Assembly (NCBI GenBank): GCA_963816345.1
Contig: CAWFKI010000005.1
Coordinates: forward strand, 2,550,053 to 2,614,052
Source of the DNA: an uncultured Bacteroidales bacterium
GTDB taxonomy: Bacteria > Bacteroidota > Bacteroidia > Bacteroidales > VadinHA17
Length of the DNA: 64,000 nucleotides
Direction: 5' to 3'
Shown here: positions 4,776 to 64,000 of the stretch, one piece after another
How positions within the stretch are numbered: the first letter of the stretch is position 1
Layout of the letters: each line of letters begins with the position of its first letter
The notes under the pieces: model-generated
Databases searched by the model: none
What the model saw: only the letters and a program-made list of their open reading frames with translations
What the model was told of the DNA's origin: nothing
Position numbers and translations under genes: made by a program

Positions 4776-6116
4776 TCAATTGTGCTTCATAAATATTTTC
4801 TCCAACTCCTCCAGACTTTTTCCTTTTGTTTCGGGAAGTTTAAAGATTACAAACAGAAGCAATAAAACACACATCACATCAAAAATCAGGAAGGCAACAC
4901 CACCGCCAAGCCTGTTTAAGATGACAGGGAAGGTAAGCGTAACCAGAAAATTTGCAGCCCATAAAGCTACAATAGAGACAGACATAGCCTTGCTTCTTAT
5001 TTTGTTGGGAAAGATCTCTGATACCATCACCCATGTCACAGGTCCTATTGATGCTGCAAACGAAGCCATATAGGTTAGAAAAAAGAAAAGGATGAAGTAA
5101 CCCTGAAGCTTGTTCAGGAAATATGCAATGGCTACCATGGTAAGCGATACTGCCATTCCTATGGTTCCCCAAATCATTAGAGGTTTTCGCCCCCAACGGT
5201 CAATCCATCTTATGGCAACAAGTGTGAACAGAAAGAGTACTCCCCCAAGAATAGCCGTCTGGATGAGTGCAGAATCTATACCATTGCCCAGATTCCTGAA
5301 GATCATAGGTGCATAATACATGATAGCGTTGATACCAGTGACCTGCTGAAAAACGGCCAGCAAGATCCCTACCCAGAGTATATATCTCATTCTCTTTGAA
5401 AATACTTCCCTGTAGCTCGTAGGTTCCTCAGAAGCAATGGAGGCTTCAATAGCTGCAAGTTCAGTGGCTGCTGTCCCGGCACCATTGATTCGCTTTAAAA
5501 TTTTAAATGATTCATCCCTCCGGTTATTCTGCATCAGCCATCGTGGGCTTTCAGGAACAAATATCAGTGAAACAAAGAAAATAAAGGCCGGAACTGCCAT
5601 TACGGCAAGCATCCATCTCCAGTTTTGCTCACCGGTACCGGAAAGAAGATAATTGGAAAAGTAGGCAACCAGATCTCCGGTTACAATAGCAAGCTGGTTG
5701 AGCGAAACCAGCGATCCCCGTTTTTCGGCAGGCGCTATTTCGGAAATGTACATGGGTGACAGCATTGAGGCGGCACCAACTGCTATACCTCCAAAAAAGC
5801 GACATGAGATAAATATTCCAAGATGAGTCGATAGTGCTGACCCGATGGCCGAGATAACAAATAGTAATGCTGATGCCAAGAGCATTTTTCTTCGTCCGAA
5901 TATATCCCCTGGTTTGCCGGACAAAATAACACCGATTATACAGCCAATTAAAAGGCTGCTTACGGTCCATCCCAGAGCGATGTCGTTGAGTTGAAAATAA
6001 GGCTGAATGAAGGGAGTTACCCCTGATATTACAGCCTCATCGAAGCCGAAAAGCAATCCTCCAAGTGTTGCCACTATTGTGACCAAAATTAAAAACCGGG
6101 AATCTTTTTCTTTCAT
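4776..6116 (-). CDS. MFS sugar porter (sugar:H+ symporter, XylE/AraE-like)
   Basis: 446 aa with about 12 hydrophobic segments. Sugar-porter signatures GRRKMLL, PESPRWL and PETKGKSLEELE. Confidence 0.85.
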   Translation of the reverse strand: MKEKDSRFLILVTIVATLGGLLFGFDEAVISGVTPFIQPYFQLNDIALGWTVSSLLIGCIIGVILSGKPGDIFGRRKMLLASALLFVISAIGSALSTHLGIFISCRFFGGIAVGAASMLSPMYISEIAPAEKRGSLVSLNQLAIVTGDLVAYFSNYLLSGTGEQNWRWMLAVMAVPAFIFFVSLIFVPESPRWLMQNNRRDESFKILKRINGAGTAATELAAIEASIASEEPTSYREVFSKRMRYILWVGILLAVFQQVTGINAIMYYAPMIFRNLGNGIDSALIQTAILGGVLFLFTLVAIRWIDRWGRKPLMIWGTIGMAVSLTMVAIAYFLNKLQGYFILFFFLTYMASFAASIGPVTWVMVSEIFPNKIRSKAMSVSIVALWAANFLVTLTFPVILNRLGGGVAFLIFDVMCVLLLLFVIFKLPETKGKSLEELEKIFMKHN

Positions 6117-25945: not shown

Positions 25946-27772
25946 ATGAAAAATCAGCTCAGAAGTTCAAAGACCACCACCGGGAGGAATATGGCAGGGG
26001 CAAGAAGTCTCTGGCGTGCCAACGGTATGAAGCAGGAACAATTCGGAAAGCCTGTCATTGCAATTGTCAACTCATTTACTCAGTTTGTGCCGGGCCATGC
26101 CCATCTTCACGAGATCGGTCAGCTGGTAAAAAAAGAGATAGAAAAGGCAGGATTTTTTGCTGCTGAATTTAATACAATCGCAATTGATGACGGGATTGCC
26201 ATGGGACATGAAGGGATGCTTTATTCCCTTCCGTCCAGGGAACTGATAGCCGACAGCATTGAATATATGTGCAATGCTCACCTTGCGGATGCCATGATAT
26301 GCATAAGCAACTGCGATAAGATTACTCCCGGAATGCTTATGGCAGCAATGAGGCTGAACATTCCTGCGGTATTTGTATCCGGAGGTCCTATGGAAGCAGG
26401 GTTCCGCAATAATAAATATATCGACCTGATAGATGCCATGGTAGCAGCCGCCGATAATTCGGTAAGCGAAAATGACCTGAGCGAAATTGAAAAATTAGCC
26501 TGTCCAACCTGCGGTTCATGCTCCGGCATGTTCACGGCAAACTCCATGAACTGCCTTAATGAGGCGCTTGGCCTGGCCCTTCCCGGAAACGGAACAATAG
26601 TGGCCACACACGCGAACAGGATAAAGCTGTTTGAAAAAGCTGCCGCATTAATTGCCGATATGGCTGACAGATATTATAATAAAGGTGATGCCTCTGTTCT
26701 TCCCAGATCGATAGCCACAAGGGAGGCGTTTATGAATGCAATGTCGCTCGACATAGCGATGGGAGGATCGACAAATACCGTTCTGCATCTTCTGGCCATC
26801 GCAAATGAAGCCGGAGTTGACTTTACAATGAAGGATATCGATGAGCTCTCCAGGAAAATTCCTAATATCTGCAAGGTGGCTCCAAGTTCACAATATCATG
26901 TCCAGGATGTCAACCGTGCGGGAGGCATTCTTGGAATAATGGGAGAACTGGAACGGGCAAACCTTATTAACAGCAAAGTAGGACGAGTGGATTATGCCAC
27001 TCTCCGTGAAGCTGTCTCCGACTGGGATATCATGGGAGGAAAAGCTGTTCAGGAAGCAACAGAAGTATTCCGGAGCGCGCCTGCCATGGAGAAAAACCTG
27101 GTCATGGGATCGCAGAATACAAGTTATAAAGAGCTTGATACCGACAGGGAAAAAGGGTGTATCAGGTCCGTAACCCACGCATATAATCAGGACGGAGGTC
27201 TTGCAGTGCTGTATGGGAATATCGCCAAAAAAGGATGCATTGTCAAAACTGCAGGTATAGAAGAATCATTGTTTAAATTCTCAGGTGGTGCGGTGATTTT
27301 TGAATCACAGGAAGATGCTGTTGAGGGAATTCTTAACGGTACCGTAAAAGCCGGGGATGTTGTTGTAATTAAATACGAAGGTCCCAAAGGTGGTCCCGGA
27401 ATGCAGGAAATGCTATACCCTACCTCCTATCTGAAGTCAATGGGTCTTGACAAGAAATGTGCCCTTATAACTGACGGACGCTTTTCAGGCGGTACATCAG
27501 GCCTTTCTATCGGTCACGTCTCCCCGGAAGCTGCCTCGGGAGGAGAGCTTGCACTGATCAGAACAGGCGACAGGATTGAAATAGATATTACGGGAAGAAA
27601 GATAAATGTTATGTTATCTGAGGATGAACTTGATTCCAGAAGGGCTGCTGAATCATCCAAAGGGAACAGGGCATACAAACCTGAAAAACGTAACCGTATT
27701 ATCTCCTCTGCACTTAAAGCTTATGCAAAATATGTAAGTTCAGCAGACCTGGGAGCTATAAGGATGATATAG
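25946..27772 (+). CDS. ilvD: Dihydroxy-acid dehydratase
   Basis: 608 aa with IlvD/Edd family motifs throughout ([37 protein letters not shown]). Confidence 0.95.
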
Positions 27773-27840
27773 CACGGGGCACAGGGCACAGAGCACAGGG
27801 CACAGAGCACAGAGCAAAGAGCACAGACTAGAGCATAGAG
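27772..27840. repeat. Tandem heptanucleotide array (GCACAGR)n
   Basis: GCACGGG GCACAGG GCACAGA GCACAGG GCACAGA GCACAGA GCAAAGA GCACAGA followed by a degenerate tail. It starts on the last base of the ilvD stop codon. Confidence 0.9.
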
Positions 27841-27885: not shown

Positions 27886-29626
27886 ATGAAGAGTGTAAAG
27901 GAAAAAGAACAGGCAACAGCACAAATTAACGGACTGGAGTGTATTACAGGTGCAGATGCCATAATAAGATGCCTCATTGAAGAGGGAGTTGATACTATAT
28001 TTGGTTATCCCGGCGGAGCTATCATGCCTGTATATGATAAGCTTCTTGATTATGAAGGTCAGATAAAGCATTATCTTACCCGTCACGAGCAGGGAGCAGC
28101 TCATGCAGCGCAGGCTTATGCCATGGTAAGCGGGAAACCGGGGATCTGCTTTGCAACATCAGGCCCGGGTGCTACAAATCTGGTAACAGGGATAGCAAAT
28201 GCGTTTCTCGACTCGGTTCCGGTTGTTTTTATTACAGCCCAGGTAGTATCGGGCCTCATAGGAACAGATGCTTTTCAGGAGACTGATATTATAGGTGTAT
28301 CGATGCCTGTGACAAAATGGAACTGCCAGATCAAGAAGCCACAGGATATACCTGAGACACTTGCAAAAGCTTTTTACATAGCAAAAACAGGCCGCCCCGG
28401 CCCCGTACTAATCGATATTACAAAAGATGCACAGATTGAGAAACTTGATTTCAGGTACTCCAAATGTGTCTCACTTGAGAAGCTATAATCCGAATATCCC
28501 CCTGCATACCAAGGCGATAGAATCGGCAGCAATAATCATCAACCATGCCGAAAGGCCTCTTATCCTTGCAGGACACGGAGTGCTTCTTTCCGGTGCAGAG
28601 AAGGAGCTTAAGGCATTTGCTGAGAAAACAGGCATACCTGTTGCGCTTACCCTCCTCGGGTTGTCTGCATTTCCATCCGACCACCGCCTCTTCGCCGGGA
28701 TGCTTGGCATGCACGGAAATTACGGCCCGAATCTGCTGACCAATCAGGCTGACCTCATAATAGCAATCGGAATGCGTTTTGATGACCGTGTTACGGGAAA
28801 TCTTAAAAAGTATGCAAATAATGCAACGATAATCCATATCGAGATTGATGAAGCCGAGATAAATAAAAATGTTGTGGTCGATGTTGAAATAAATAATGAT
28901 GCAAAGGAGGCTTTAACATATCTGACACGAATTGTGAAGGAGAACTCCTTTGAGAAATGGATCAGGGAATTCAGGATATGCGATAAAATCGAATACGATA
29001 AAGTTATCAAGCCTGAAACGAAACCAGAATCGGGTGAGATTAAGATGGGTGAGGTAATAAGACTGGTCTCCGAACATACAAAAGGAGATGCCATTATTGT
29101 AACGGATGTCGGACAACATCAGATGTATACTGCCCGTTACTATAAATTTAATAAACCAAACACACTTGTCACCTCGGGTGGAATGGGAACAATGGGTTTC
29201 GGCCTTCCTGCCGGGATAGGAGCAAAGATCGGAAGCCCGGAAAAGACTGTAATAGCATTCATAGGAGACGGTGGTTTCCAGATGACAATGCAGGAACTGG
29301 GAACAATATTGCAGTATGGCATTGCTCTGAAGATCATCATACTCAATAACAATTTCCTTGGAATGGTGCGCCAGTGGCAGGACATGTTTTTCGATAAGCG
29401 CTATGCCTCAACAGAACTGGTAAATCCGGATTTCGTTATGATAGCCAAAGCTTTCAGTATACCTTCAAAAAAAGTTACTCTGAGAGAAGACCTTAAAGAT
29501 TCCCTTATTGAGATGATAGACGCCGAGGGACCCTATCTTCTCGAAATAAAGGTGGAGAAGCAGGGAAATGTATTCCCAATGGTTGAACCGGGAAAATCAG
29601 TCTCGGAAATAAGATTGACTTATTAA
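27886..29626 (+). pseudogene. ilvB: Acetolactate synthase large subunit with an interrupted reading frame (authentic or sequencing artefact)
   Basis: ORF 27886-28488 (TPP-binding N-domain) ends ...[16 protein letters not shown] 28427-29626 in the +1 frame carries ...LRSYNPNIP...[10 protein letters not shown] and the rest of the enzyme. Removing one nt near 28477 would give a continuous ...[16 protein letters not shown]... protein. Confidence 0.85.
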
Positions 29627-45053: not shown

Positions 45054-45153
45054 GCGAAGTCTCCGCTAAGCGAAGTCCCGCTAAGCGAAGTCTCCAGACT
45101 TCGCTTTATCTATTTAATCCTGCCCCGCTAAGCGAAGTCTCCAGACTTCGCTT
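45047..45153. repeat. CCGCTAAGCGAAGTCT direct repeats ending in two copies of the palindrome AAGCGAAGTCTCCAGACTTCGCTT
   Basis: Three tandem 15-16-nt units start inside the last hisIE codons; the gene's TAA is the TAA of the first unit. Perfect palindromes lie at 45083-45106 and 45130-45153. They probably also act as the his operon terminator hairpins. Confidence 0.85.
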
Positions 45154-45233
45154 CATATATATCACAGAATTCATAATTTTAACAGGATCATTAGTTTTTA
45201 AACATTTTTGTTTGTTATTTCAAAAGAAATAAA

Positions 45234-45241
45234 TACTTTTG
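45234..45241 (+). promoter_or_regulatory. Bacteroidetes-type -7 box (TActTTTG) for the aromatic operon leader
   Basis: TAnnTTTG match ending 21 nt upstream of the leader ATG at 45262. Confidence 0.55.
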
Positions 45242-45261
45242 TAACCCAATAAGGCAGTCAA

Positions 45262-45327
45262 ATGAATATTGTGTACAAATATTTTATCTCCTTTTTCTAC
45301 TTCTATTTTTACTTTAAAAACAGATAA
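45262..45327 (+). CDS. Aromatic (Phe/Tyr) leader peptide MNIVYKYFISFFYFYFYFKNR
   Basis: 21-codon ORF in which 6 codons are Phe and 5 are Tyr. It is followed by an intrinsic terminator 13 nt before pheA. Confidence 0.7.
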   Translation: MNIVYKYFISFFYFYFYFKNR

Positions 45328-45367
45328 GGGGATTTTTGTATACAGATATAATTAATTTATATGAAAC

Positions 45368-45400
45368 AAGGGTCCCGCAAAGGGGCCCTTATTTGTTTTT
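45368..45400 (+). terminator. Intrinsic terminator of the Phe/Tyr attenuator
   Basis: 9-bp stem AAGGGTCCC/GGGGCCCTT (one G-U), loop GCAAA, followed by ATTTGTTTTT. Confidence 0.7.
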
Positions 45401-45412
45401 AAAACATTTAAG

Positions 45413-46243
45413 ATGAAGGTATCGATACAGGGAGAAGCTGGAAGTTTTCATGAAGTTGCGGCAAGGCAGTACTTCAGCTATGATGAGGTTGAAATTGTTC
45501 CATGCCCGACATTTGATCTCACTCTGAACACACTCAAAGCCGGAGAATCAGATTTTGCCGTTATGGCAATAGAGAATGCCCGCTCGGGAAGCATTCTTTA
45601 TAACTACACACTCATAAGGGAATCAGGGCTGAAGATCCTCGGAGAACACAATCTCAGGATAAAGCAGAACCTTATGGCGCTTCCCGGACAGCTTATCACC
45701 GATATCAGGGAGATAAGGTCCCACCCGATAGCCCTGGCCCAGTGCATGACATTTCTGAATCAGTTTCCCGGCATGACCCTTATTGAAAGCGACGATACGG
45801 CAGGAAGTGCAAAACAGATCAGCGAGAATCAGCTGAAAGGAGTGGCAGCCATAGCATCCGTTGCATCTGCTGAAATATATGGTCTTGATATACTTGCCGA
45901 AGGCATTGAGACATACAAACAAAATTATACCAGGTTTCACATAATCGGAAGTGAAGATAAGGGGAATACGAAAGGGAACAAGGTATCCATCTGTTTTTCA
46001 ACGGGTCATAAGCCCGGATCACTGGCAAAAGTTCTGGTCAAGCTTGCGGAACTGGAGATAAACCTCTCTAAGATTCAATCGGTTCCAAGGCTCAACGGTG
46101 AGTGGGAATATATGTTCTATCTCGACCTGGAGCTGAACAAGAATACAAAATCAGAGGTAATAAAAAGGGTACTGAATAACCACACAAGCAACCTTGAGAT
46201 ACTTGGTGTATATTTTAAAGGAGACATGCTATATGAAAGTTAA
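45413..46243 (+). CDS. pheA: Prephenate dehydratase (PDT + ACT domains)
   Basis: 276 aa. Motifs: IQGEAGSFHE, an ESDDTAGSA variant of the TRF-region, and a C-terminal ACT domain (KVSICFSTGHKPGSLAKVL). Confidence 0.9.
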   Translation: MKVSIQGEAGSFHEVAARQYFSYDEVEIVPCPTFDLTLNTLKAGESDFAVMAIENARSGSILYNYTLIRESGLKILGEHNLRIKQNLMALPGQLITDIREIRSHPIALAQCMTFLNQFPGMTLIESDDTAGSAKQISENQLKGVAAIASVASAEIYGLDILAEGIETYKQNYTRFHIIGSEDKGNTKGNKVSICFSTGHKPGSLAKVLVKLAELEINLSKIQSVPRLNGEWEYMFYLDLELNKNTKSEVIKRVLNNHTSNLEILGVYFKGDMLYES

Positions 46244-47420
46244 ACCGGCTGACCGTACAGGCAATGTACAGGAATACTATTTTTCGCAAAAACTTGCCCA
46301 GATAGACAGGATGCGGAAAGAAGGAGCTGACGTCATTAATCTGGGAATCGGCAGCCCCGACCAGGCTCCATCGGAAAGCACCATCGCGGCCCTGACTGCT
46401 TATGCAGGAAAACCGACATCACATGGCTATCAGAGTTATACAGGAGTATATGCCCTCAGAAAGGCATTTGCTGAGTGGTATAAGAAATACTTTCATGTTG
46501 ATCTTAACCCCGAGAATGAGATACTACCTTTAATGGGCAGTAAGGAGGGAATAATGCATGTCAGCATGGCGTTTGTAAATCCGGGCGATGAGGTGCTGAT
46601 ACCCGATCCCGGATATCCCACCTACTCATCTGTTACAAATCTTGTCGGGGGTATTCCGAGGAAATACGACCTGACGGAGGAGAATGGCTGGCTTCCCGAT
46701 CTCGAAGCCCTTGAAAACAGCGACCTGAGCAGGGTCAAGGTGATGTGGGTAAACTATCCCAACATGCCTACCGGGACCAAAGGATCAGTGCAGCTCTTCG
46801 AAAAGCTTGTATCATTTTCAATGAAACATGGAATACTACTTTGCAATGACAATCCTTACAGCTTCATTTTAAATAAGGATTATCACAGTATTCTTCAGGT
46901 TGATGGCGCCATGGAAACAGCCCTGGAGATGAATTCGCTTAGTAAATCACAGAATATGGCAGGCTGGCGCATAGGAATGGTGGCAGGCCACAGAGAGTAT
47001 ATAAAGGAGGTGCTGAAAGTAAAAAGCAATATGGACTCAGGCATGTTCCTGCCGATGCAGATGGCTGCTGTTGAAGCGCTTAACAACCCTGACTCATGGT
47101 ATGACCAGGTAAATGAAGTATATATTAAACGGAGGAAGAGAGTTGAAGAAATAATGGACCTGCTTAAATGCAGGTATGACAAAAGCCAGGCCGGATTGTT
47201 TGTCTGGGGGCGAATACCGGATAATATCAGGAGCTGCGAGGATTTCACTTCGGAAATACTTGAAAAATCACATGTATTTATCACACCAGGGTTTATCTTT
47301 GGGAAAAATGGCGAAAGATATATCCGCATCTCACTCTGCGCTACAGAGGAAAGACTGACGGAGGCGCGGGAGAGGATTATATCAATAGATTCCCCTCCCT
47401 GGAGGGGGGGTGGGTTCTAG
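46233..47420 (+). CDS. Class I/II PLP-dependent aminotransferase (probable aromatic/prephenate aminotransferase)
   Basis: Start at ATG 46233 (MKVKPADR), overlapping the pheA 3' end. Motifs: NPNNPTG-like region and SLSKSQNMAGWRIG (PLP lysine). The last roughly 9 codons (SPPWRGGGF*) are encoded by a copy of the intergenic repeat. Confidence 0.85.
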   Translation: MKVKPADRTGNVQEYYFSQKLAQIDRMRKEGADVINLGIGSPDQAPSESTIAALTAYAGKPTSHGYQSYTGVYALRKAFAEWYKKYFHVDLNPENEILPLMGSKEGIMHVSMAFVNPGDEVLIPDPGYPTYSSVTNLVGGIPRKYDLTEENGWLPDLEALENSDLSRVKVMWVNYPNMPTGTKGSVQLFEKLVSFSMKHGILLCNDNPYSFILNKDYHSILQVDGAMETALEMNSLSKSQNMAGWRIGMVAGHREYIKEVLKVKSNMDSGMFLPMQMAAVEALNNPDSWYDQVNEVYIKRRKRVEEIMDLLKCRYDKSQAGLFVWGRIPDNIRSCEDFTSEILEKSHVFITPGFIFGKNGERYIRISLCATEERLTEARERIISIDSPPWRGGGF

Positions 47421-47741
47421 GAAGAAGCACAGGGCTCAGGGCACGGGGCTCAGGCATTGCCAGCCGTAGCTTTCTTCGACCTCCGTAGCTTTAGCGGAGG
47501 AGGTAGCGAAGGCTGGGCACAGAGCAGTAAGCAGTACTTCAGCAGGATCCCCTCCTGGGAGGGGGCAGGGGTGGGTTCCAGGAAGGGGCACAGGGCACAG
47601 AGCACAGAGCACAGGCATTGCCAGCTGTAGCTTTCTTCGACCTCCGTAGCTTTAGCGGAGGAGGTAGCGGAGGCTGGGCACAGAGCAGTAAGCAGTACTT
47701 CAGCAGGATCCCCTCCTGGGAGGGGCAGGGGTGGGTTTAAA
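47391..47741. repeat. Tandem duplication of a roughly 160-bp composite unit (partial + 2 full copies)
   Basis: Units at about 47421-47581 and 47582-47741 are near-identical. Each contains (GCACAGG)4, a nested hairpin region CCAGCC...CCTCCG TAGCTTTAG CGGAGG...GGCTGG, GCAGTAAGCAGTACTTCAGC, and CCCCTCCTGGGAGGGG(G)CAGGGGTGGGTT. The terminal motif also occurs at 47391-47420. Confidence 0.9.
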
Positions 47742-47782
47742 GTAAGAAGAATAGTTATTAAATAAGATTACATATAAAAAAC

Positions 47783-48628
47783 ATGACAATTGCAGTTATT
47801 GGAGTAGGGCTCATAGGCGGATCGCTTGTAGTGGATCTCCGCAAGAGGAAATTTGCAGACAGGATTATCGGAGTGGACAGTAATATCCATCACCAGAATA
47901 TTGCTCTACTCTGCGGACTTGTGGATGAGAATGACACCCTGGAAAACGCTGTTGAAAAAAGCGATCTTATCATTCTTTCAACTCCTGTGAATACAAACTC
48001 TGCGATGTTGCCCGGGATACTCGATATGATTGCCGGCACCTCGAAAGTGGTGACTGATATGGGCTCCACAAAAGCAAGCATTGCCAGGGCTTCGGTTAAC
48101 CATCCTGCAAGAGGTCGCTATGTTGCAGTCCACCCTATGGCCGGAACAGAATATTCCGGACCTCTGGCTGCCATTGGAAAACTTTTTGATTATAAGAACG
48201 CCATTATATGTGACCGGGAGCTCAGCGATCCTGATGCCCTTGAACTTGTCGAGAAAATGCTCGATACTCTTAATATGCATAAAGTGTACATGAGCTCAAG
48301 CGACCACGATGTTCATGTGGCCTATATTTCACATATTTCCCACATTACATCTTTCTCACTCGCCCTCTGTGTTCTGGATAAGGAGAATGAAGAAGGGAAT
48401 ATCCTTACACTTGCCGGTGGTGGTTTCGAAAGTACCGTACGGCTTGCAAAGAGCAACGGAGATACCTGGGCGCCTATCTTCGTGGAAAACTCCGAATTCA
48501 TCCTCGAAGTAATGGATACATATATAGATAAAATGAATTCCTTCAGAAAGATGATAACCGATAAGGATGTCAGCGGTTTGAAATCCCTTATGGAAGAGGC
48601 AAATAAGATAAGGAAGATATTGAATTAA
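47783..48628 (+). CDS. tyrA: Prephenate dehydrogenase
   Basis: 281 aa. Rossmann motif IAVIGVGLIGGS plus HPMAG and SHDVHVAYISHISH motifs. Confidence 0.88.
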   Translation: MTIAVIGVGLIGGSLVVDLRKRKFADRIIGVDSNIHHQNIALLCGLVDENDTLENAVEKSDLIILSTPVNTNSAMLPGILDMIAGTSKVVTDMGSTKASIARASVNHPARGRYVAVHPMAGTEYSGPLAAIGKLFDYKNAIICDRELSDPDALELVEKMLDTLNMHKVYMSSSDHDVHVAYISHISHITSFSLALCVLDKENEEGNILTLAGGGFESTVRLAKSNGDTWAPIFVENSEFILEVMDTYIDKMNSFRKMITDKDVSGLKSLMEEANKIRKILN

Positions 48629-51209: not shown

Positions 51210-51239
51210 AAAGGCACGCTTTTCACAGCGTGCCTTTTT
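51210..51239 (+). terminator. Intrinsic terminator of the Trp attenuator
   Basis: 11-bp perfect stem AAAGGCACGCT/AGCGTGCCTTT, loop TTTCAC, T run. GCTGTGAAA at 51164-51172 (end of the leader ORF) is a perfect complement of TTTCACAGC at 51221-51229, giving an antiterminator. Confidence 0.8.
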
Positions 51240-52645: not shown

Positions 52646-52684
52646 AATTATTTTCTTCTCTTTTAGTTTAAAACCCATCCCCTT

Positions 52685-52940
52685 CCCCTTCCCTTAAGAG
52701 TAAGGGAAGGGGTAAGAGCCTTATCATAAATGACTTAGTTTTTCCCTCCCCTTATTTTTTAAGGGGAGGGTCAGGGAGGGGTTAAAAATAAAATAAAGAG
52801 GGGCCAGGGGTGGGTTTAAGGGAATGGCCAGGGCTCCGGGTTAGCAGAAAAAACGGCGAAGTCTGGAGACTTCGCCGAGCGTGCCACGATAGCTATCGTT
52901 ATGAGAGTAAGTTTAACGGCGAAGTCTGGAGACTTCGCCG
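52685..52940. repeat. Cluster of perfect hairpins/palindromes downstream of trpB2
   Basis: CCCCTTCCCTTA-AGAG-TAAGGGAAGGGG (52685-52712). CCCTCCCCTTA-TTTTT-TAAGGGGAGGG (52744-52770). CAGGGGTGGGTT motif (52805-52817). CGGCGAAGTCTGGAGACTTCGCCG twice (52854-52877, 52917-52940). ACGATAGCTATCGT sits between the last two. Confidence 0.9.
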
Positions 52941-56474: not shown

Positions 56475-56477
56475 AAA

Positions 56478-56955
56478 AAGCGAAGTCTGGAGACTTCGCT
56501 TAACAACTTCGCTTAGCAACTTCGCTTAGCGACCCGCTGGCGCCGATTTGTAATTGGTGCCATATCGATTTCCGCTGGCGCCGATTTGTAATCGGTGCCA
56601 TAAACAAAATTACATAAATATTAAATAGGCACGGATTGCAAAGCGCTGCCCGCTGGCAGACCCCCAAACCCCCTAAAGGGGGCTTTTTTATCGTGATCTA
56701 CAAGTTTTCAGTATTACGCGAAGTGTCATACCACGACACCGCTGTGTCAGCCAAGCTCAGCGAAGGCTGATTCTGAATACCGGATACCGGGTTGGCACGG
56801 ATTGCAAATCTGCGCCATAATCGGTGTCATAAATGAAAATTATATTGTAAGTGATGCGGATAACTGCACTGATGCTAATTGGCACGGATTGTAAATCCGC
56901 GCCAGCGCAAGGGAGGAGGGGCCTCCGCTGGCGCCGATTTGCAATCGGTGCCATA
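56478..56955. repeat. Dense repeat/hairpin field
   Basis: Palindrome AAGCGAAGTCTGGAGACTTCGCTT at 56478-56501. AACTTCGCTTAGC x2 at 56505-56530. CCGCTGGCGCCGATTTGYAATYGGTGCCATA x3 at 56534-56564, 56572-56602 and 56925-56955. The inverted relative GGCACGGATTGYAAA...GCC x3 at 56628-56650, 56794-56816 and 56881-56907. Confidence 0.9.
56669..56689 (+). terminator. Candidate intrinsic terminator
   Basis: CCCCC-TAAA-GGGGG followed by C and T6. The short 5-bp GC stem makes this only moderately convincing. Confidence 0.4.
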
Positions 56956-56972
56956 GATAAAATATACCATCT

Positions 56973-58048
56973 TTATTTTTTGACAATGAGTACTATTGCA
57001 TCATTTGCATTGATTGTAAATGATTTTCCGGATGGAATTTTACCATATAAATTTTCAGCTATCTTCCAACCCTCCTTCAGTTTCAGGTCTGCAGTACCAT
57101 CTTCATTATTATAATTGATAAGTACTACCACCCGTTCATTATCACTGATACTATGCTCTGTCACACCGATATAAGGATTGTTCTGAGTTAAGACCCTGTC
57201 CTGGATAACATCTTTTGCAACAAGCTTGTATATATTATAGTAAGCCGGCATTCCCATGTCAAAGGCACCGGGGGTATTCGCCAGGTTGCTCTCCAGCGGG
57301 AAGGTAAGCAGGTAACTTTCCCTTGCCATATTGTGAGACCATCAGCGCCGGATCCCCATCAGGCTCTCTCCCCAGCACTTCAAGATCGACAGGAGTTATG
57401 TTGAGCTTTCGTTCAGAGAATGTCTCAAAATTAAGGCTGTCATTCCCGATCCTGGAATTAAAATGCAAAGCTCCGAATACGCCGGATATTAGTCCGGATC
57501 TCTATCCCCATTGGTTCAGTCAGTGTTGGCAGATATACAAAATCAAGGGAAAGATACAGAGTGGCGCCCTGTTTTACTTTGTCAAGTATCCCATACCAGG
57601 AATCTTTAAAAATGGCATACAATCCCTTTACTGAAGGAAGCATATAAACAGCGGCTTCCCTCAGCTCCTTGCCTGATTTCTGGAACTGAATATCAAATCC
57701 GGTGCTTTGCCAGTATAAAGCTGCTGTAAGCCGCTGCCCAGCTGTCCTGTCCTTCCGTCAGAATGCAAACAGCTTCTGTTTTACGTGGAGGAAGTGTTTT
57801 AAAGGGAAGTTTCTCAAGAAAACCGGAGAAATTTTTAAATTCGGCGAGTACCGGCTTGGGAGTTCTGTCTTCTCTTATTAGTCCAGCTGCTGCTCTACTG
57901 CCGAGTAATTATATGGAGGATAATCAAGCTGAGCGATCAAAACCGCACCACCACAACATCCCTTTGCAATCATGTGCCCAGTTTGAAAAAAGTGCCGTCC
58001 GGGCAAAAGCGGCTTTTTCCTTCTCTCCTGCATCATCGGGCCCATCAT
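56973..58048 (-). pseudogene. Degraded glycoside-hydrolase remnant (clan GH-A barrel end + GH42-like middle/C-terminal domains), N-terminal half missing
   Basis: At least six colinear fragments in different frames: ...GMLWWCGFD / QLDYPPYNYSAVEQQ / GLIREDRTPKPVLAEF...AVCILTEGQDSWAAAY / TGFDIQFQKSGKELREAAVYMLPSVKGLY... / 57468-57259 / 57329-56973. The upstream end abuts the repeat module starting about 58049. Confidence 0.6.
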
Positions 58049-58415
58049 CTTTCTTTTTACGCAAAAAGAAAGTACCAAAGAAAATGCGCCGGAAAAGACA
58101 ACCCCACCCTGTTTGTCCGCCTGCTGCACAAGGCCTTAAAGGCGCCACCAAACAGGGTGCGGTTCGCACCTTTTCCGGTTTGCCCTCGCGCCGCTAAAGA
58201 TGATAATTTTGGAAATGCGAATGGACAGGCCACGCCATGGCGTGGCCCTACGACCTCAAACATACAATAATGTAGGGTCATGCCATGGCATGACCCTTTC
58301 AATCGTAATCCAGGCACTTTAAAATCCTTTCCATTTTATGTCATTAGAATCACAATTACGCGAGCACAATTGAAGTTTTCCTCTGCAGGTTGTGTGCTCC
58401 ATGCTTTCCGCTCTC
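58049..58415. repeat. Composite hairpin module, left copy (inverted relative to 61209-61526)
   Basis: The reverse complement of 58181-58300 matches 61279-61398 with about 4 differences in 120 nt. The ends also match (CTTTCTTTTTACGCAAAAAGAAAG; heptamer/GCATGGAG block). The central hairpin differs, and about 75 nt (58303-58375) are extra. Confidence 0.85.
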
Positions 58416-61209: not shown

Positions 61210-61526
61210 GCGTAGAGCGTAGAGCGTAGAGCGTAGAGCGAAGAGCATGGAGAGCACAACCTACAGAGGAGAACGGTTAAAGGGGTCATGCCATGGCATG
61301 ACCCTACATAATCGTATGTTTGAGGTCGTAGGGCCACGCCATGGCGTGGCCTGTCCATTCGCATTTCCAAAATTATCATCTTTAGCGGCGCGAGGGCAAA
61401 CCCCAAAAAGGTGTGAAATTAATGGCTTTGGGCCCTGGTTCGGGAGGGCCCGTGGGCAACAAAGCCATTAATTTTTCTTTTTGGGCGCCTTTTCTTTGGT
61501 ACTTTCTTTTTGCGTAAAAAGAAAGT
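61209..61526. repeat. Composite hairpin module, right copy (inverted relative to 58049-58415)
   Basis: Begins with (AGCGTAG)4 AGCGAAG AGCATGG on the stop codon of the URO-D gene. It then has palindromes GGGTCATGCCATGGCATGACCC (61283-61304) and GGCCACGCCATGGCGTGGCC (61332-61351), a 15-bp-arm hairpin AAATTAATGGCTTTG...CAAAGCCATTAATTT, and ACTTTCTTTTTGCGTAAAAAGAAAGT. Confidence 0.85.
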
Positions 61527-62636: not shown

Positions 62637-62656
62637 TCTGAATTATAAATAATATA

Positions 62657-62772
62657 GGCATCAGGCATCAGGCTTCAGGCTTCAGGTTAAGCACAGGGCA
62701 CAGGGCGCAGGCACGGGCGCAGGATTAAAAGGTATTCGGTATTCGGTATTCGGTATTCGGTGTCCGGTCGTC
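62657..62772. repeat. Concatenated heptanucleotide arrays
   Basis: (GGCATCA)2 (GGCTTCA)2 GG TTAA (GCACAGG)2 GCGCAGG CACGGGCGCAGG ATTAAAA (GGTATTC)4 GGTGTCC GGTCGTC. The GCACAGG-TTAAAA-GGTAWTC order is the same as on the opposite strand at 58446-58513. Confidence 0.9.
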
Positions 62773-62845
62773 TTGATTACTCTTATGTAACTTCTTTTTT
62801 CAATAGTTATTCTTATTTAGGGCCATATTAGCTTGTACTGAGGGA

Positions 62846-62922
62846 CTGATTACTGATTACCGATTACCGATTACCGATTACCGATTACCGATTACCGATT
62901 ACTGATTACCGATTACCGCTCT
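62846..62922. repeat. Tandem heptanucleotide array (CYGATTA)10, = (GGTAATC)n in gene sense
   Basis: CTGATTA x2, CCGATTA x6, CTGATTA, CCGATTA, CCGCTCT. The last units encode the final codons (…SGNR) and the TAA stop (62906-62908) of the GH38 gene. Confidence 0.92.
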
Positions 62923-64000
62923 CCGGTGTAATGCCAATCGTCACAATCTCATTCGGCCTGATCTTCACCTGAAGTGTCCTGCCGTTAACAACAGGAGCAG
63001 CTGCCCCGGTAAGAGGCATTTCCAACAGGTTGAGCCTCCGGGCAGAACTCATACTGACAGGTACGGTAAGATTTATAAGAGTCTCCCTGCCTTCAGTCTC
63101 ACAAAGCCTGATTATCAGTTCATTTCCATCCTCAGACTTTTTGATCCCTGTCATTACAACCCCCGGATTATCGATCGCAATAAATGAATTCTCTTCTGGA
63201 CGCGTTGCATGTTCCTTCCCAAAAGCAAGCGAAGGGGGCTCGGCTGCATACACAGGAATATTGAAATCTTCGCCTTCGGCCCATACACCGTTTTTCCAGT
63301 CACCGCTGTGAGGGAATAATGAATAGCTTATAATGTATTTGCCGAGATTCGGATAGATATCCGGATTACCAGCCGCCCTCATAAGAGTAATCCTGAGCTC
63401 ACCATTATGATATGAGTGCCCGTATTTGGTTTTGTTTAAAAGAGCAATACCAACCTTCCCGTCAGTTACATCGACCCATTTCTGTGCCGGAACCTCCTGT
63501 CCGTCATTAGTTTCACCTGATATCCCGTAAGCACCCTGATGCCTCTGATAAGGAGGCGCCTCTTTACCATTCATCATACCGTCGATTGGTCTCTGAACAA
63601 CATTGAAGGGAACCTGGGAGTAAAATCCCGGATTTTCGAGTGAAAGCGGGAAGACCGCCCTCAACATAGGAGAATCCGTTGAATCGCTTCCCGTTTCAAG
63701 CCAGTGCACCTCCATATCATAATCGATACGCGGATAGGAACGGTAGAGATATGTACGTTCAATAAATCTTGATTTACCCCATGTTTTTACTGTCTCCACA
63801 CAGGCCCTGACCGGTCCGTCCTCCACAACTTTCACACCGGCAACATTTGTAACATCTTCCTGCCCTGTATATTTATTAATGACCCACGACTTCATCTCTC
63901 CCTTTTTATCCTCGAGCGAGATCCGCAGGGTATTAAGCCGGCCTCCCTGCCTTACATACTCTTTACTGGTCCGTTTATCAAAGAGGCTGACAATGCCTCC
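62906..64000 (-). CDS. GH38 alpha-mannosidase, C-terminal part (gene continues beyond the right edge)
   Basis: The frame is open from 64000 (GGIVSLFDKRTSKEYV...). WVDVTDGKVGIALLNKTKYGHSYHNGELRITLMRAAGNPD is the typical GH38 C-terminal-domain pattern. Confidence 0.75.
   Translation of the reverse strand, partial: GGIVSLFDKRTSKEYVRQGGRLNTLRISLEDKKGEMKSWVINKYTGQEDVTNVAGVKVVEDGPVRACVETVKTWGKSRFIERTYLYRSYPRIDYDMEVHWLETGSDSTDSPMLRAVFPLSLENPGFYSQVPFNVVQRPIDGMMNGKEAPPYQRHQGAYGISGETNDGQEVPAQKWVDVTDGKVGIALLNKTKYGHSYHNGELRITLMRAAGNPDIYPNLGKYIISYSLFPHSGDWKNGVWAEGEDFNIPVYAAEPPSLAFGKEHATRPEENSFIAIDNPGVVMTGIKKSEDGNELIIRLCETEGRETLINLTVPVSMSSARRLNLLEMPLTGAAAPVVNGRTLQVKIRPNEIVTIGITPESGNR

Follow-up and report, generated by a model that had tools for sequence, protein, structure and literature searches.

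An uncultured Bacteroidales bacterium of the VadinHA17 lineage (GenBank assembly GCA_963816345.1, contig CAWFKI010000005.1, positions 2,550,053 to 2,614,052 of the forward strand) carries a block of repeats between a class I/II aminotransferase gene and tyrA of its aromatic operon. The window referred to below is this whole stretch of 64,000 nucleotides, and coordinates are those of the window. With a probability that we put at roughly 0.6, the block is a mosaic of extragenic repeat modules typical of this Bacteroidales lineage, selfish or neutral, co-transcribed with the operon, and without a dedicated regulatory role. Its hairpin module belongs to a widespread, strand-asymmetric family that is found mostly at the 3' flank of tRNA genes. 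Pfam assigns the genes of the operon as prephenate dehydratase (pheA), aminotransferase, prephenate dehydrogenase (tyrA), DAHP synthase/chorismate mutase and EPSP synthase, and with these identities bears out a preliminary description that had placed a structured, duplicated insert in the middle of an aromatic operon.

Architecture and turnover of the repeat block

Tandem Repeats Finder detects an array of period 161 at 47407-47737 (2.1 copies, 93% matches, score 583). A repeat search of the window matches 47407-47567 with 47568-47728 at 92% identity, and BLAST alignment of the two units, A and B, puts their identity at 93.7% (159 nt aligned, 9 mismatches, and 1 gap that is the indel of a G). 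(The near-identical tandem pair of about 160 bp, with a few substitutions and one G indel, of the preliminary description is confirmed by these figures.) The block runs from end-motif copy 0 through unit A to unit B, and its last base, 47737, lies 45 nt upstream of the tyrA ATG. Within each unit the order is heptamer array, nested hairpin, linker and end motif; array, hairpin and end motif had been ascribed to each unit before, and all are located in both. The block would thereby be put together from three modules: a C-arm/G-arm hairpin with a GGGGTGGGTT tail, a heptanucleotide array, and a REP-like hairpin with its own motif nested in the loop.

The elements, all on the plus strand, are as follows. 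End-motif copy 0 (47392-47416; CCCCTCCCTGGAGGGGGGGTGGGTT), a C-arm/G-arm hairpin with a G-rich tail, lies within coding sequence. Unit A proper opens with heptamer array A (47427-47454, about 4 units of GCACAGG type according to Tandem Repeats Finder) and continues with nested hairpin A (47460-47516), whose outer part reads CCAGCC-GTA-GC...GC-GAA-GGCTGG and which folds at -30 kcal/mol (z = -3.7). The loop of hairpin A contains an inner motif, ACCTCC-GTA-GC-TTTA-GC-GGA-GGAGGT (47479-47504), that is matched by the covariance model. Linker A (47517-47548; GCACAGAGCAGTAAGCAGTACTTCAGCAGGAT) is degenerate and heptamer-like, and its sequence is not seen beside the hairpin in any other locus inspected. 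End-motif copy 1 (47549-47577; CCCCTCCTGGGAGGGGGCAGGGGTGGGTT) includes a canonical G-quadruplex motif at 47557-47575. In unit B the corresponding elements are heptamer array B (47586-47615, 4.3 units of GGGCACA, again from Tandem Repeats Finder), nested hairpin B (47621-47677; -28.1 kcal/mol, z = -2.4; inner motif at 47640-47665 by the covariance model), linker B (47678-47709) and end-motif copy 2 (47710-47737; CCCCTCCTGGGAGGGGCAGGGGTGGGTT; G-quadruplex motif at 47718-47735). The nested hairpin of each unit has outer stem CCAGCC/GGCTGG and inner stem CCTCCG/CGGAGG. Hairpin B differs from hairpin A at two outer positions, a C-G pair of the stem having become U-G and the loop GAA having become GGA. 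The end motif of each unit is CCCCTCCTGGGAGGGG(G)CAGGGGTGGGTT. Between the block and the tyrA ATG remains an AT-rich leader (47738-47782, plus strand) that is kept in relatives and represents what is left of the native spacer.

Orthologous loci were retrieved by way of aminotransferase homologues. In the more distant of these (L152, L155 and L154) the aminotransferase-tyrA spacer measures 46, 22 and 30 nt, respectively, with no repeats seen, as against 362 nt in the window. A much closer relative, L002 (about 90% nucleotide identity over 16 kb), has a spacer containing only GGTAATC- and GCACAGG-type heptamer arrays, and BLAST homology between it and the window breaks exactly at 47380 and resumes at 47737. 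The bounds of the inserted or replaced block, 47381-47737 on the plus strand, are set by this alignment and by the spacers of the other relatives. By sequence comparison, then, the block is an insertion into an operon spacer that is normally 22-46 nt long. A miniature inverted-repeat transposable element was considered and rejected: the copies of the end motif that delimit the block are direct and not inverted, and its 47380 and 47737 junctions show no duplication relative to L002 and L152.

Other relatives have filled the same spacer differently. L003 (83% protein identity) has other mixes of heptamers, C-arm/G-arm hairpins and G-rich tails, and L153 (82% protein identity) has similar content extending over about 370 nt. 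L001 and L111 (95% protein identity) share with the window the C-terminal motif and the tandem pair, with a different inner hairpin and a spacing of 155 nt. The two units of L111 are 93% alike within their locus and only 77-78% identical to the units of the window, while the flanking genes are about 94.6% identical; this pattern is as expected from concerted evolution or repeated replacement, and not from conservation. Heptamer copy number also varies (3 in L001, 5 in L111). A hairpin located downstream of a PALP-family gene in L002, in a spacer that is not orthologous, matches the L001-type hairpin at all of 52 nt. Such identity at non-orthologous sites implies that the hairpin module is dispersed, and further copies are found in unrelated spacers of Bacteroidales metagenome-assembled genomes. 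In the comparison with orthologous operons for which the preliminary description had called, L111 thus has a tandem pair as well, and the element is not conserved, close relatives lacking it, having different repeats at this position or keeping a spacer of 22-46 nt.

Since direct repeats of the end motif, 25-29 nt long, stand on either side of each unit, the motif should be a natural substrate for unequal recombination. The 161-bp unit (array, hairpin, linker and end motif) may accordingly have been duplicated by unequal recombination or slippage between flanking end-motif copies, and the same process may keep the two units alike. (An array at another locus parallels the duplication in the window: L135, at 5374-5819, has four tandem units, in each of which a family hairpin is combined with an incomplete repeat of the adjoining tRNA-Arg 3' end.) The relation 161 = 23 x 7 raised the idea that the entire unit is heptamer-derived. 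It was rejected, the 155-nt spacing of the orthologous L111 tandem marking it as a coincidence.

Since the two copies differ at 10 positions, and since an independent metagenome contig, L111, carries a tandem pair at the orthologous locus, the duplication is taken to be genuine. This settles against the doubt, raised earlier, that it might be an artefact of assembly. Short-read assemblies do terminate within the element, as would be seen with an artefact; such breaks are also expected of a genuine repeat, and the block explains why they occur at this position. The companion proposal, that the block is a gene (for a small RNA, or for the 60-residue protein of a minus-strand open reading frame at 47436-47618), can point to that reading frame, to a 105-codon open frame on the minus strand and to the minus-strand fold of the whole block (z = -4.4). 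The 60-residue reading frame is nevertheless rejected as a gene because it lies wholly inside a block that L002 lacks, and the proposal further has against it the lack of any Rfam match and the location of the strand-asymmetric hairpin loops on the plus strand. Artefact and gene are together hardly credible.

A strand-asymmetric hairpin family at tRNA gene ends

Relatives of the nested hairpin were collected from metagenome contigs with the pattern TTGCCAGCYGWAGC-N5-35-GCGDAGGCTGG, which leaves the inner region unconstrained and yields at least 120 loci. The inner regions among the matches listed comprise 104 distinct sequences, nearly every one of which can form a stem; their rungs are 337 Watson-Crick pairs, 14 G-T, 4 A-C and 18 other combinations. 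The same loci (matches listed) hold 68 more hairpins with other outer stems, among them CCCGCC/GGCGGG, TCCGCC/GGCGGA, CCCGTC/GACGGG and TCCTCC/GGAGGA, as against 8 in a reversed-sequence control. Covariation is judged from these unconstrained inner regions and from the control. The equal-length alignments A2 and A3 are not used for this purpose: their pair counts show many double changes and are partly circular, the hairpin finder having required pairing. The hairpins collected define a family in which a 6-bp outer stem of variable sequence leads to a symmetric internal loop that does not vary, G(A/T)A/GAA, then to GC/GC, a covarying inner stem and a terminal loop that is usually a GNA triloop. 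G(T/A)AG is invariant in the family, but lies within the stem as part of the symmetric internal loop, and GAAG is as common as GTAG.

The loops distinguish the two strands. Distinct triloops among the matches listed are C(GNA)G in 23 of 29 cases on the pattern strand and in 1 on the other strand, and the tetraloops of the family are mostly GNRA-like. This asymmetry implies that the strand that folds is the one carrying GWAGC...GCGAAG, which in the window is the sense strand of the operon. The inner hairpin of the window is nearly identical to a free-standing hairpin, CCCGCC-GTA-GC-TTTA-GC-GAA-GGAGGG, in L129 and has a near copy in L053. Being itself a family member, it makes of the 57-nt structure one copy nested in the loop of another.

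Family hairpins are 26-57 nt long, and the related loci that were examined have one of them every 8-21 kb. Apart from the nested pair, the window holds a short member at 56747-56770 on the plus strand (TCAGCC-AAGCT.AGCGAAGGCTGA; covariance model, 20.4 bits, E = 0.012). All copies in the window are intergenic; one metagenome copy lies inside a long open reading frame. (This copy, CCAGCCGTAGCCTTTGGCGAAGGCTGG at 1978-2004 of L112, stands in sense orientation in an open reading frame of 1513 codons; its 27 nt are 9 codons, so that the reading frame is kept.) A scan of a genome collection with CAGGCATTGCCAGCYGWAGC proved less informative: 25 of its 28 matches fall in an apparent conserved coding motif of GC-rich phyla and are not hairpins, and only L007, L016 and L020 are relevant. 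The family is apparently undescribed. Rfam does not contain it, a literature search of limited scope did not find it and turned up unrelated primers as the only literal sequence matches, and an Rfam scan of 11 hairpin-family loci returned only tRNA matches and hairpin-like noise.

The association with tRNA genes is direct. Among the matches listed, 74 of the 118 hairpins with enough flanking sequence lie no more than 5 nt from a tRNA gene of the opposite strand, at its 3' end, and the last TGG of GGCTGG is the CCA of the adjoining tRNA. These tRNA-adjoining copies (matches listed) involve 15 tRNA specificities and contigs of 33% to 70% GC. At 17 of the 120 loci listed, a small gene for a GIY-YIG nuclease (PF01541) lies about 100-250 nt from the hairpin. 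The layout of these loci in GC-rich contigs is tRNA, antisense hairpin (sharing the CCA), sense hairpin, and a GIY-YIG gene of 80-95 codons, and is represented by L035, L066, L076, L090, L097, L102, L110, L114, L121, L129 and L148, among others. In AT-rich, Bacteroidales-like contigs the long nested hairpin, flanked by heptamers, is instead placed between protein-coding genes (the window, L111, L002, L007, L016 and L092). Embedding of the hairpin in tandem heptamer arrays is seen in the window, L111, L002, L016, L058, L086 and L092; the L058 hairpin is 131 nt from the 3' end of tRNA-Val, with heptamers in between. Viral contigs provide a single match in 2.9 million, which indicates that the hairpin is not a phage feature.

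The dispersal of the family to other intergenic sites would be expected to take place at the level of DNA, by hairpin-targeted insertion or gene conversion that is possibly assisted by a nuclease. One can go further and think of the G(A/T)A/GAA hairpin as a non-autonomous mobile DNA element with the tRNA CCA end as its usual site, moved or maintained by the adjoining GIY-YIG nucleases in analogy to REPINs and their RAYT proteins; the heptamer arrays would then be by-products of insertion or repair, and the copies in the aromatic operon recent escapees undergoing tandem amplification. This proposal is speculative and we regard it as doubtful. The unit of tRNA, two hairpins and GIY-YIG gene could be a mobile cassette or conserved synteny, since the loci in question are mostly beside tRNA-Ala and tRNA-Val and could thus reflect the gene order of one clade rather than mobility. 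A limited literature search for GIY-YIG nucleases together with tRNA genes and repeats finds only fungal mitogenomes and phage homing endonucleases.

An alternative of a different kind has the repeats serving the host as DNA, as nucleoid-protein or topoisomerase sites of the sort described for BIMEs, or as a maintained recombination hotspot. The mosaic, BIME-like organization speaks for it. So does the internal loop, which together with the outer stem is strongly conserved in contigs that range from 33% to 70% GC and thereby hints at a conserved protein that recognizes them. No protein partner has been identified, however, the density of hairpins in the window is low and their presence varies among close relatives, so that this alternative is quite improbable. 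Whichever way the family is propagated, its sharp definition, strand asymmetry and location at tRNA 3' ends over so wide a range of base composition are what give the analysis its wider value. If the hairpin is mobile, it is a new kind of REP-like element, and heptamer arrays become linked to hairpin elements in a second phylum, after the cyanobacteria. Should it instead be a conserved site of protein binding, a factor so far unknown would act at the ends of tRNA genes.

The block in the aromatic operon

The one certain phenotypic effect of the block is a tail of about 9 residues on the aminotransferase. The gene (46233-47420, plus strand) reads through end-motif copy 0 and ends with ...IISIDSPPWRGGGF at 47420, so that the repeat contributes the final ~9 codons (SPPWRGGGF) together with the TAG stop (47418-47420). 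The Pfam aminotransferase domain stops at residue 382 of 395. In 120 aminotransferase homologues the conserved part ends ...EA(K/R)ERI and is followed by a few variable residues (a typical end is ...EAKERIMKLx), and most of these homologues, at 384-387 residues, are about 10 residues shorter at the C-terminus. The earlier suggestion that a third copy of the end motif supplies the last codons of the gene is borne out by these comparisons. In L002 it is the first heptamer array, of GGTAATC type, that supplies the C-terminus of the aminotransferase. Downstream, tyrA occupies 47783-48628 (plus strand; Pfam).

Control of the operon is probably exerted well upstream of the block. The region at 45211-45390 (plus strand), conserved in L002, comprises a Bacteroidetes-type consensus promoter, TTTG-N19-TACTTTTG, at 45211-45241 (the only full match near the operon), a leader peptide, MNIVYKYFISFFYFYFYFKNR, of 21 codons, 10 of them for Phe or Tyr, at 45262-45327, and a terminator-like hairpin with T-run at 45368-45390, directly before pheA. 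In all probability this is a Phe/Tyr leader-peptide attenuator of the aromatic operon. The block would be transcribed as part of the operon mRNA from this promoter and leader, and its stable hairpins may, as a side effect, impede 3'-to-5' decay or be sites of processing.

The preliminary description had proposed that an internal terminator, processing site or promoter in the block uncouples tyrA-aroA expression from that of pheA. No terminator-like site, defined as a hairpin followed by a T-run, is found in 47391-47741 by a scan that does find those at 45368 and at 51210 (after the EPSP synthase gene). Ahead of tyrA, neither a σ70-like site on the plus strand nor the Bacteroidetes consensus TTTG-N19-21-TAnnTTTG is found. 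In Rfam 15, nothing in the window reaches the gathering score, and the matches to 47300-47800 at E <= 10 amount to noise. By these scans the block is neither an intrinsic terminator nor a curated RNA family, and with the element not conserved either, an uncoupling terminator or promoter is left without support in the sequence. Folding, which had also been put forward as a check, gives a divided answer: the nested hairpins are significantly more stable than shuffled sequence (z-scores as given above), and the whole 161-nt units fold no better than shuffles (z = -1.1 and +0.1). The notion of a 160-nt structured RNA was dropped for this reason, the nested hairpin being the only significant fold.

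The effect of the hairpins on RNA might nonetheless have been selected. Acting by a REP-like mechanism, they would protect the pheA-aminotransferase part of the mRNA from 3' exonucleases, or serve as an RNase site or partial terminator, and shift the stoichiometry of the tyrA, DAHP synthase and EPSP synthase products. In favor of this are the stability of the hairpins and the strand asymmetry that marks the sense strand, their sense orientation in the majority of AT-rich protein-coding contexts, the presence of one repeat or another at this junction in several lineages, and the reported function of REPs in transcription termination and mRNA stability (PMC3116915). No hairpin is followed by a T-run, however, the spacer content is not conserved even at 90-95% relatedness, many relatives lack the insert altogether, and a whole unit, as noted, does not fold better than chance. 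A selected RNA device is unlikely on balance; what weight it keeps it owes to the bias toward the sense strand and the repeated colonization of the junction.

The G-rich end motif invites a separate proposal. It consists of a C-rich and a G-rich arm, with a loop between the two and GGG(G)TGGGTT following, and recurs in L003, L020, L092 and L153. CAGGGGTGGGTT occurs 3 times in the window (47566, 47726 and 52805), compared with 0.22 expected by chance, and the next large spacer contains related C-arm/G-arm hairpins with GGG(A/T)GGGTT tails in both orientations (52660-52830); related motifs had already been noticed at 52771-52817. G-quadruplex motifs, defined by sequence alone as four runs of at least 3 G with loops of 1-7 nt, number six in the window versus 0.44 expected, five of them in the two repeat-filled spacers. 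Each is accompanied by a complementary C-rich arm, so that hairpin and quadruplex would compete, and the motif might constitute a switch, in mRNA or DNA, that modulates translation termination of the aminotransferase or initiation of tyrA. Such a switch is very improbable: the end-motif hairpins do not exceed shuffled sequence in stability, four clean runs of G are missing from copy 0, the motif is not conserved among relatives, and its G-richness may be mere repeat composition. (A derivation of the end motif from a degenerate tRNA or T-arm, prompted by GGGTTCGAAT in L003, was also considered. It was rejected because ARAGORN detects no tRNA anywhere in the window and Rfam, searched to E <= 10 with 47300-47800, shows nothing tRNA-like.)

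Several observations weigh against the block being selfish or neutral DNA of a dispersing repeat family. The spacer has been colonized independently in at least five lineages (the window, L111, L002, L003 and L153), which could mean that the site benefits from an insert beyond tolerating one. Of about 7 clear AT-rich protein-coding contexts, at least 6 have the GNA/GA-rich strand as the sense strand; the counts are small, and the bias would also fit selection at the RNA level. The covariance model finds only three hairpin sites in the 64 kb of the window. Searches for an enzyme of mobility were negative within their range: tblastn finds no GIY-YIG homologue in the window, and Pfam no transposase domain among 18 window proteins scanned, with no genome-wide search for RAYT having been made. 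Conservation of the outer stem holds by construction, the family having been retrieved with an exact pattern, and read-through of the block and absence of processing are presumptive. For the operon itself, the repeat-mosaic reading is mostly deflationary: the insert would be junk-like hypervariable DNA in a permissive spacer, with a harmless tail on an enzyme.

Other repeats of the window are recorded here for their own sake. In the ilvD-ilvB spacer (27771-27827) an AGCACAG array of 8 units overlaps the ilvD stop codon, so that a second biosynthetic operon has the same heptamer in a spacer; the adjacent acetolactate synthase (ilvB-like) gene, 27886-29626, is present as two overlapping open reading frames (27886-28488 and 28427-29626), which may be a frameshift or a sequencing error. 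At 62656-62918, arrays of AGGCATC, GCACAGG, GGTATTC and GATTACC (x10) are adjacent to each other. The GATTACC/GGTAATC array enters the 3' end of a GH38-like gene (62906-63895, minus strand), and is of the same kind as the array that forms the C-terminus of the aminotransferase in L002 (11150-11210). Inverted repeats of about 120 nt at 58180-58300 and 61283-61400, which include an identical 33-mer and GGGTCATGCCATGGCATGACCC palindromes, flank a 3-kb segment with an SDF-family symporter gene (minus strand) and a URO-D-like gene (plus strand); this segment may be invertible or duplicated. A gene-free stretch of 500 nt at 56476-56980 contains other palindrome families (TGGCACGGATTGCAAATCCGCGCCA, CGCTGGCGCCGATTTGTAATCGGTGCC), a C5/G5 hairpin and the short family hairpin at 56747-56770. 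Perfect palindromes of the form GCGAAGTCT-(GG/CC)-AGACTTCGC are found downstream of genes at 45083, 45130, 52854, 52917, 56478 and 59871. They have a GCGAAG-NCTGG core in common with the hairpin family, and two are terminator-like (45083 on the plus strand and 52877 on the minus strand).

Comparison with known repeat systems

REP elements are typically located at the 3' ends of genes or in co-directional spacers, and their palindrome is preceded on its 5' side by a conserved GTAG head. They number in the hundreds per genome, where a cognate RAYT gene, for a Y1/HUH transposase, is flanked by the repeats. Most repeat clusters in other parts of the window, too, occupy 3' ends of genes or co-directional spacers. 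The REP, BIME and REPIN sequences of Proteobacteria are short imperfect palindromes, extragenic and variable from strain to strain, whose functional roles are thought to be incidental (PMC3116915). What is seen here resembles them in being composed of imperfect extragenic palindromes of 20-60 nt, often at gene 3' ends or within operons, in mosaic clusters and with presence varying among close strains. The inverted doublets of REPs have a counterpart in the antisense and sense hairpins (1 and 2) at the tRNA flank, and the G(T/A)AG beside the palindrome recalls the GTAG head. On the other hand, the conserved part of the present family is the symmetric G(A/T)A/GAA internal loop in the stem and not a 5' head, most metagenome copies (matches listed) abut a tRNA CCA end, and the hairpins are embedded in heptamer arrays and of low density in the window. 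Because the conserved feature is an internal loop, and because RAYT was not sought genome-wide, membership in the REP family is not claimed.

Heptanucleotide repeats are known from intergenic regions of some Bacteroidetes, among other organisms (MacGregor 2015, reviewing Mrazek 2007; PMC4679880). Those arrays and the present ones are alike in intergenic location, variable copy number and sporadic phylogeny, with other heptamers in Bacteroidetes spacers; the TAACTGA arrays, however, are mostly situated just upstream of start codons (PMC4679880). The heptamers described here (GCACAGG, GGTAATC and others) flank hairpins and enter gene 3' ends.

Pneumococcal BOX and neisserial Correia/NEMIS elements are modular, with variable tandem internal units, are co-transcribed with neighboring genes and can alter mRNA processing. 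The block shares their modular architecture, variable tandem units and (presumptive) co-transcription, but has no terminal inverted repeats or target-site duplication, and its sequences are unrelated to theirs.

A further precedent is cyanobacterial. Elhai and colleagues are said to have described, in 2008, small dispersed repeats (SDRs) that are tiny hairpins inside heptameric STRR arrays, and nested within themselves. SDR families (SDR1-8, restricted to one subgroup of the cyanobacteria) reportedly have in common a structure, with compensatory changes and little sequence, and show signs of recent mobility without an obvious enzyme. A small hairpin within tandem heptamer arrays, the nesting of one copy within another, and common structure with compensatory changes and little common sequence are all encountered here, as are signs of recent mobility with no enzyme in evidence. 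The differences are of host (Bacteroidales versus Nostocales), of sequence and of size, the present hairpins being larger at 26-57 nt; the contigs with the present family also range widely in GC content (33-70%), and the family is linked to the 3' ends of tRNA genes. Given its Bacteroidales host, the block is to be regarded as an analogue of the cyanobacterial SDRs and not as a member. By analogy of organization it is even closer to them than to the REP, BIME and REPIN sequences, and the best reading of the block is as a variant of mosaic extragenic repeats that is at once REP/BIME-like and SDR-like.

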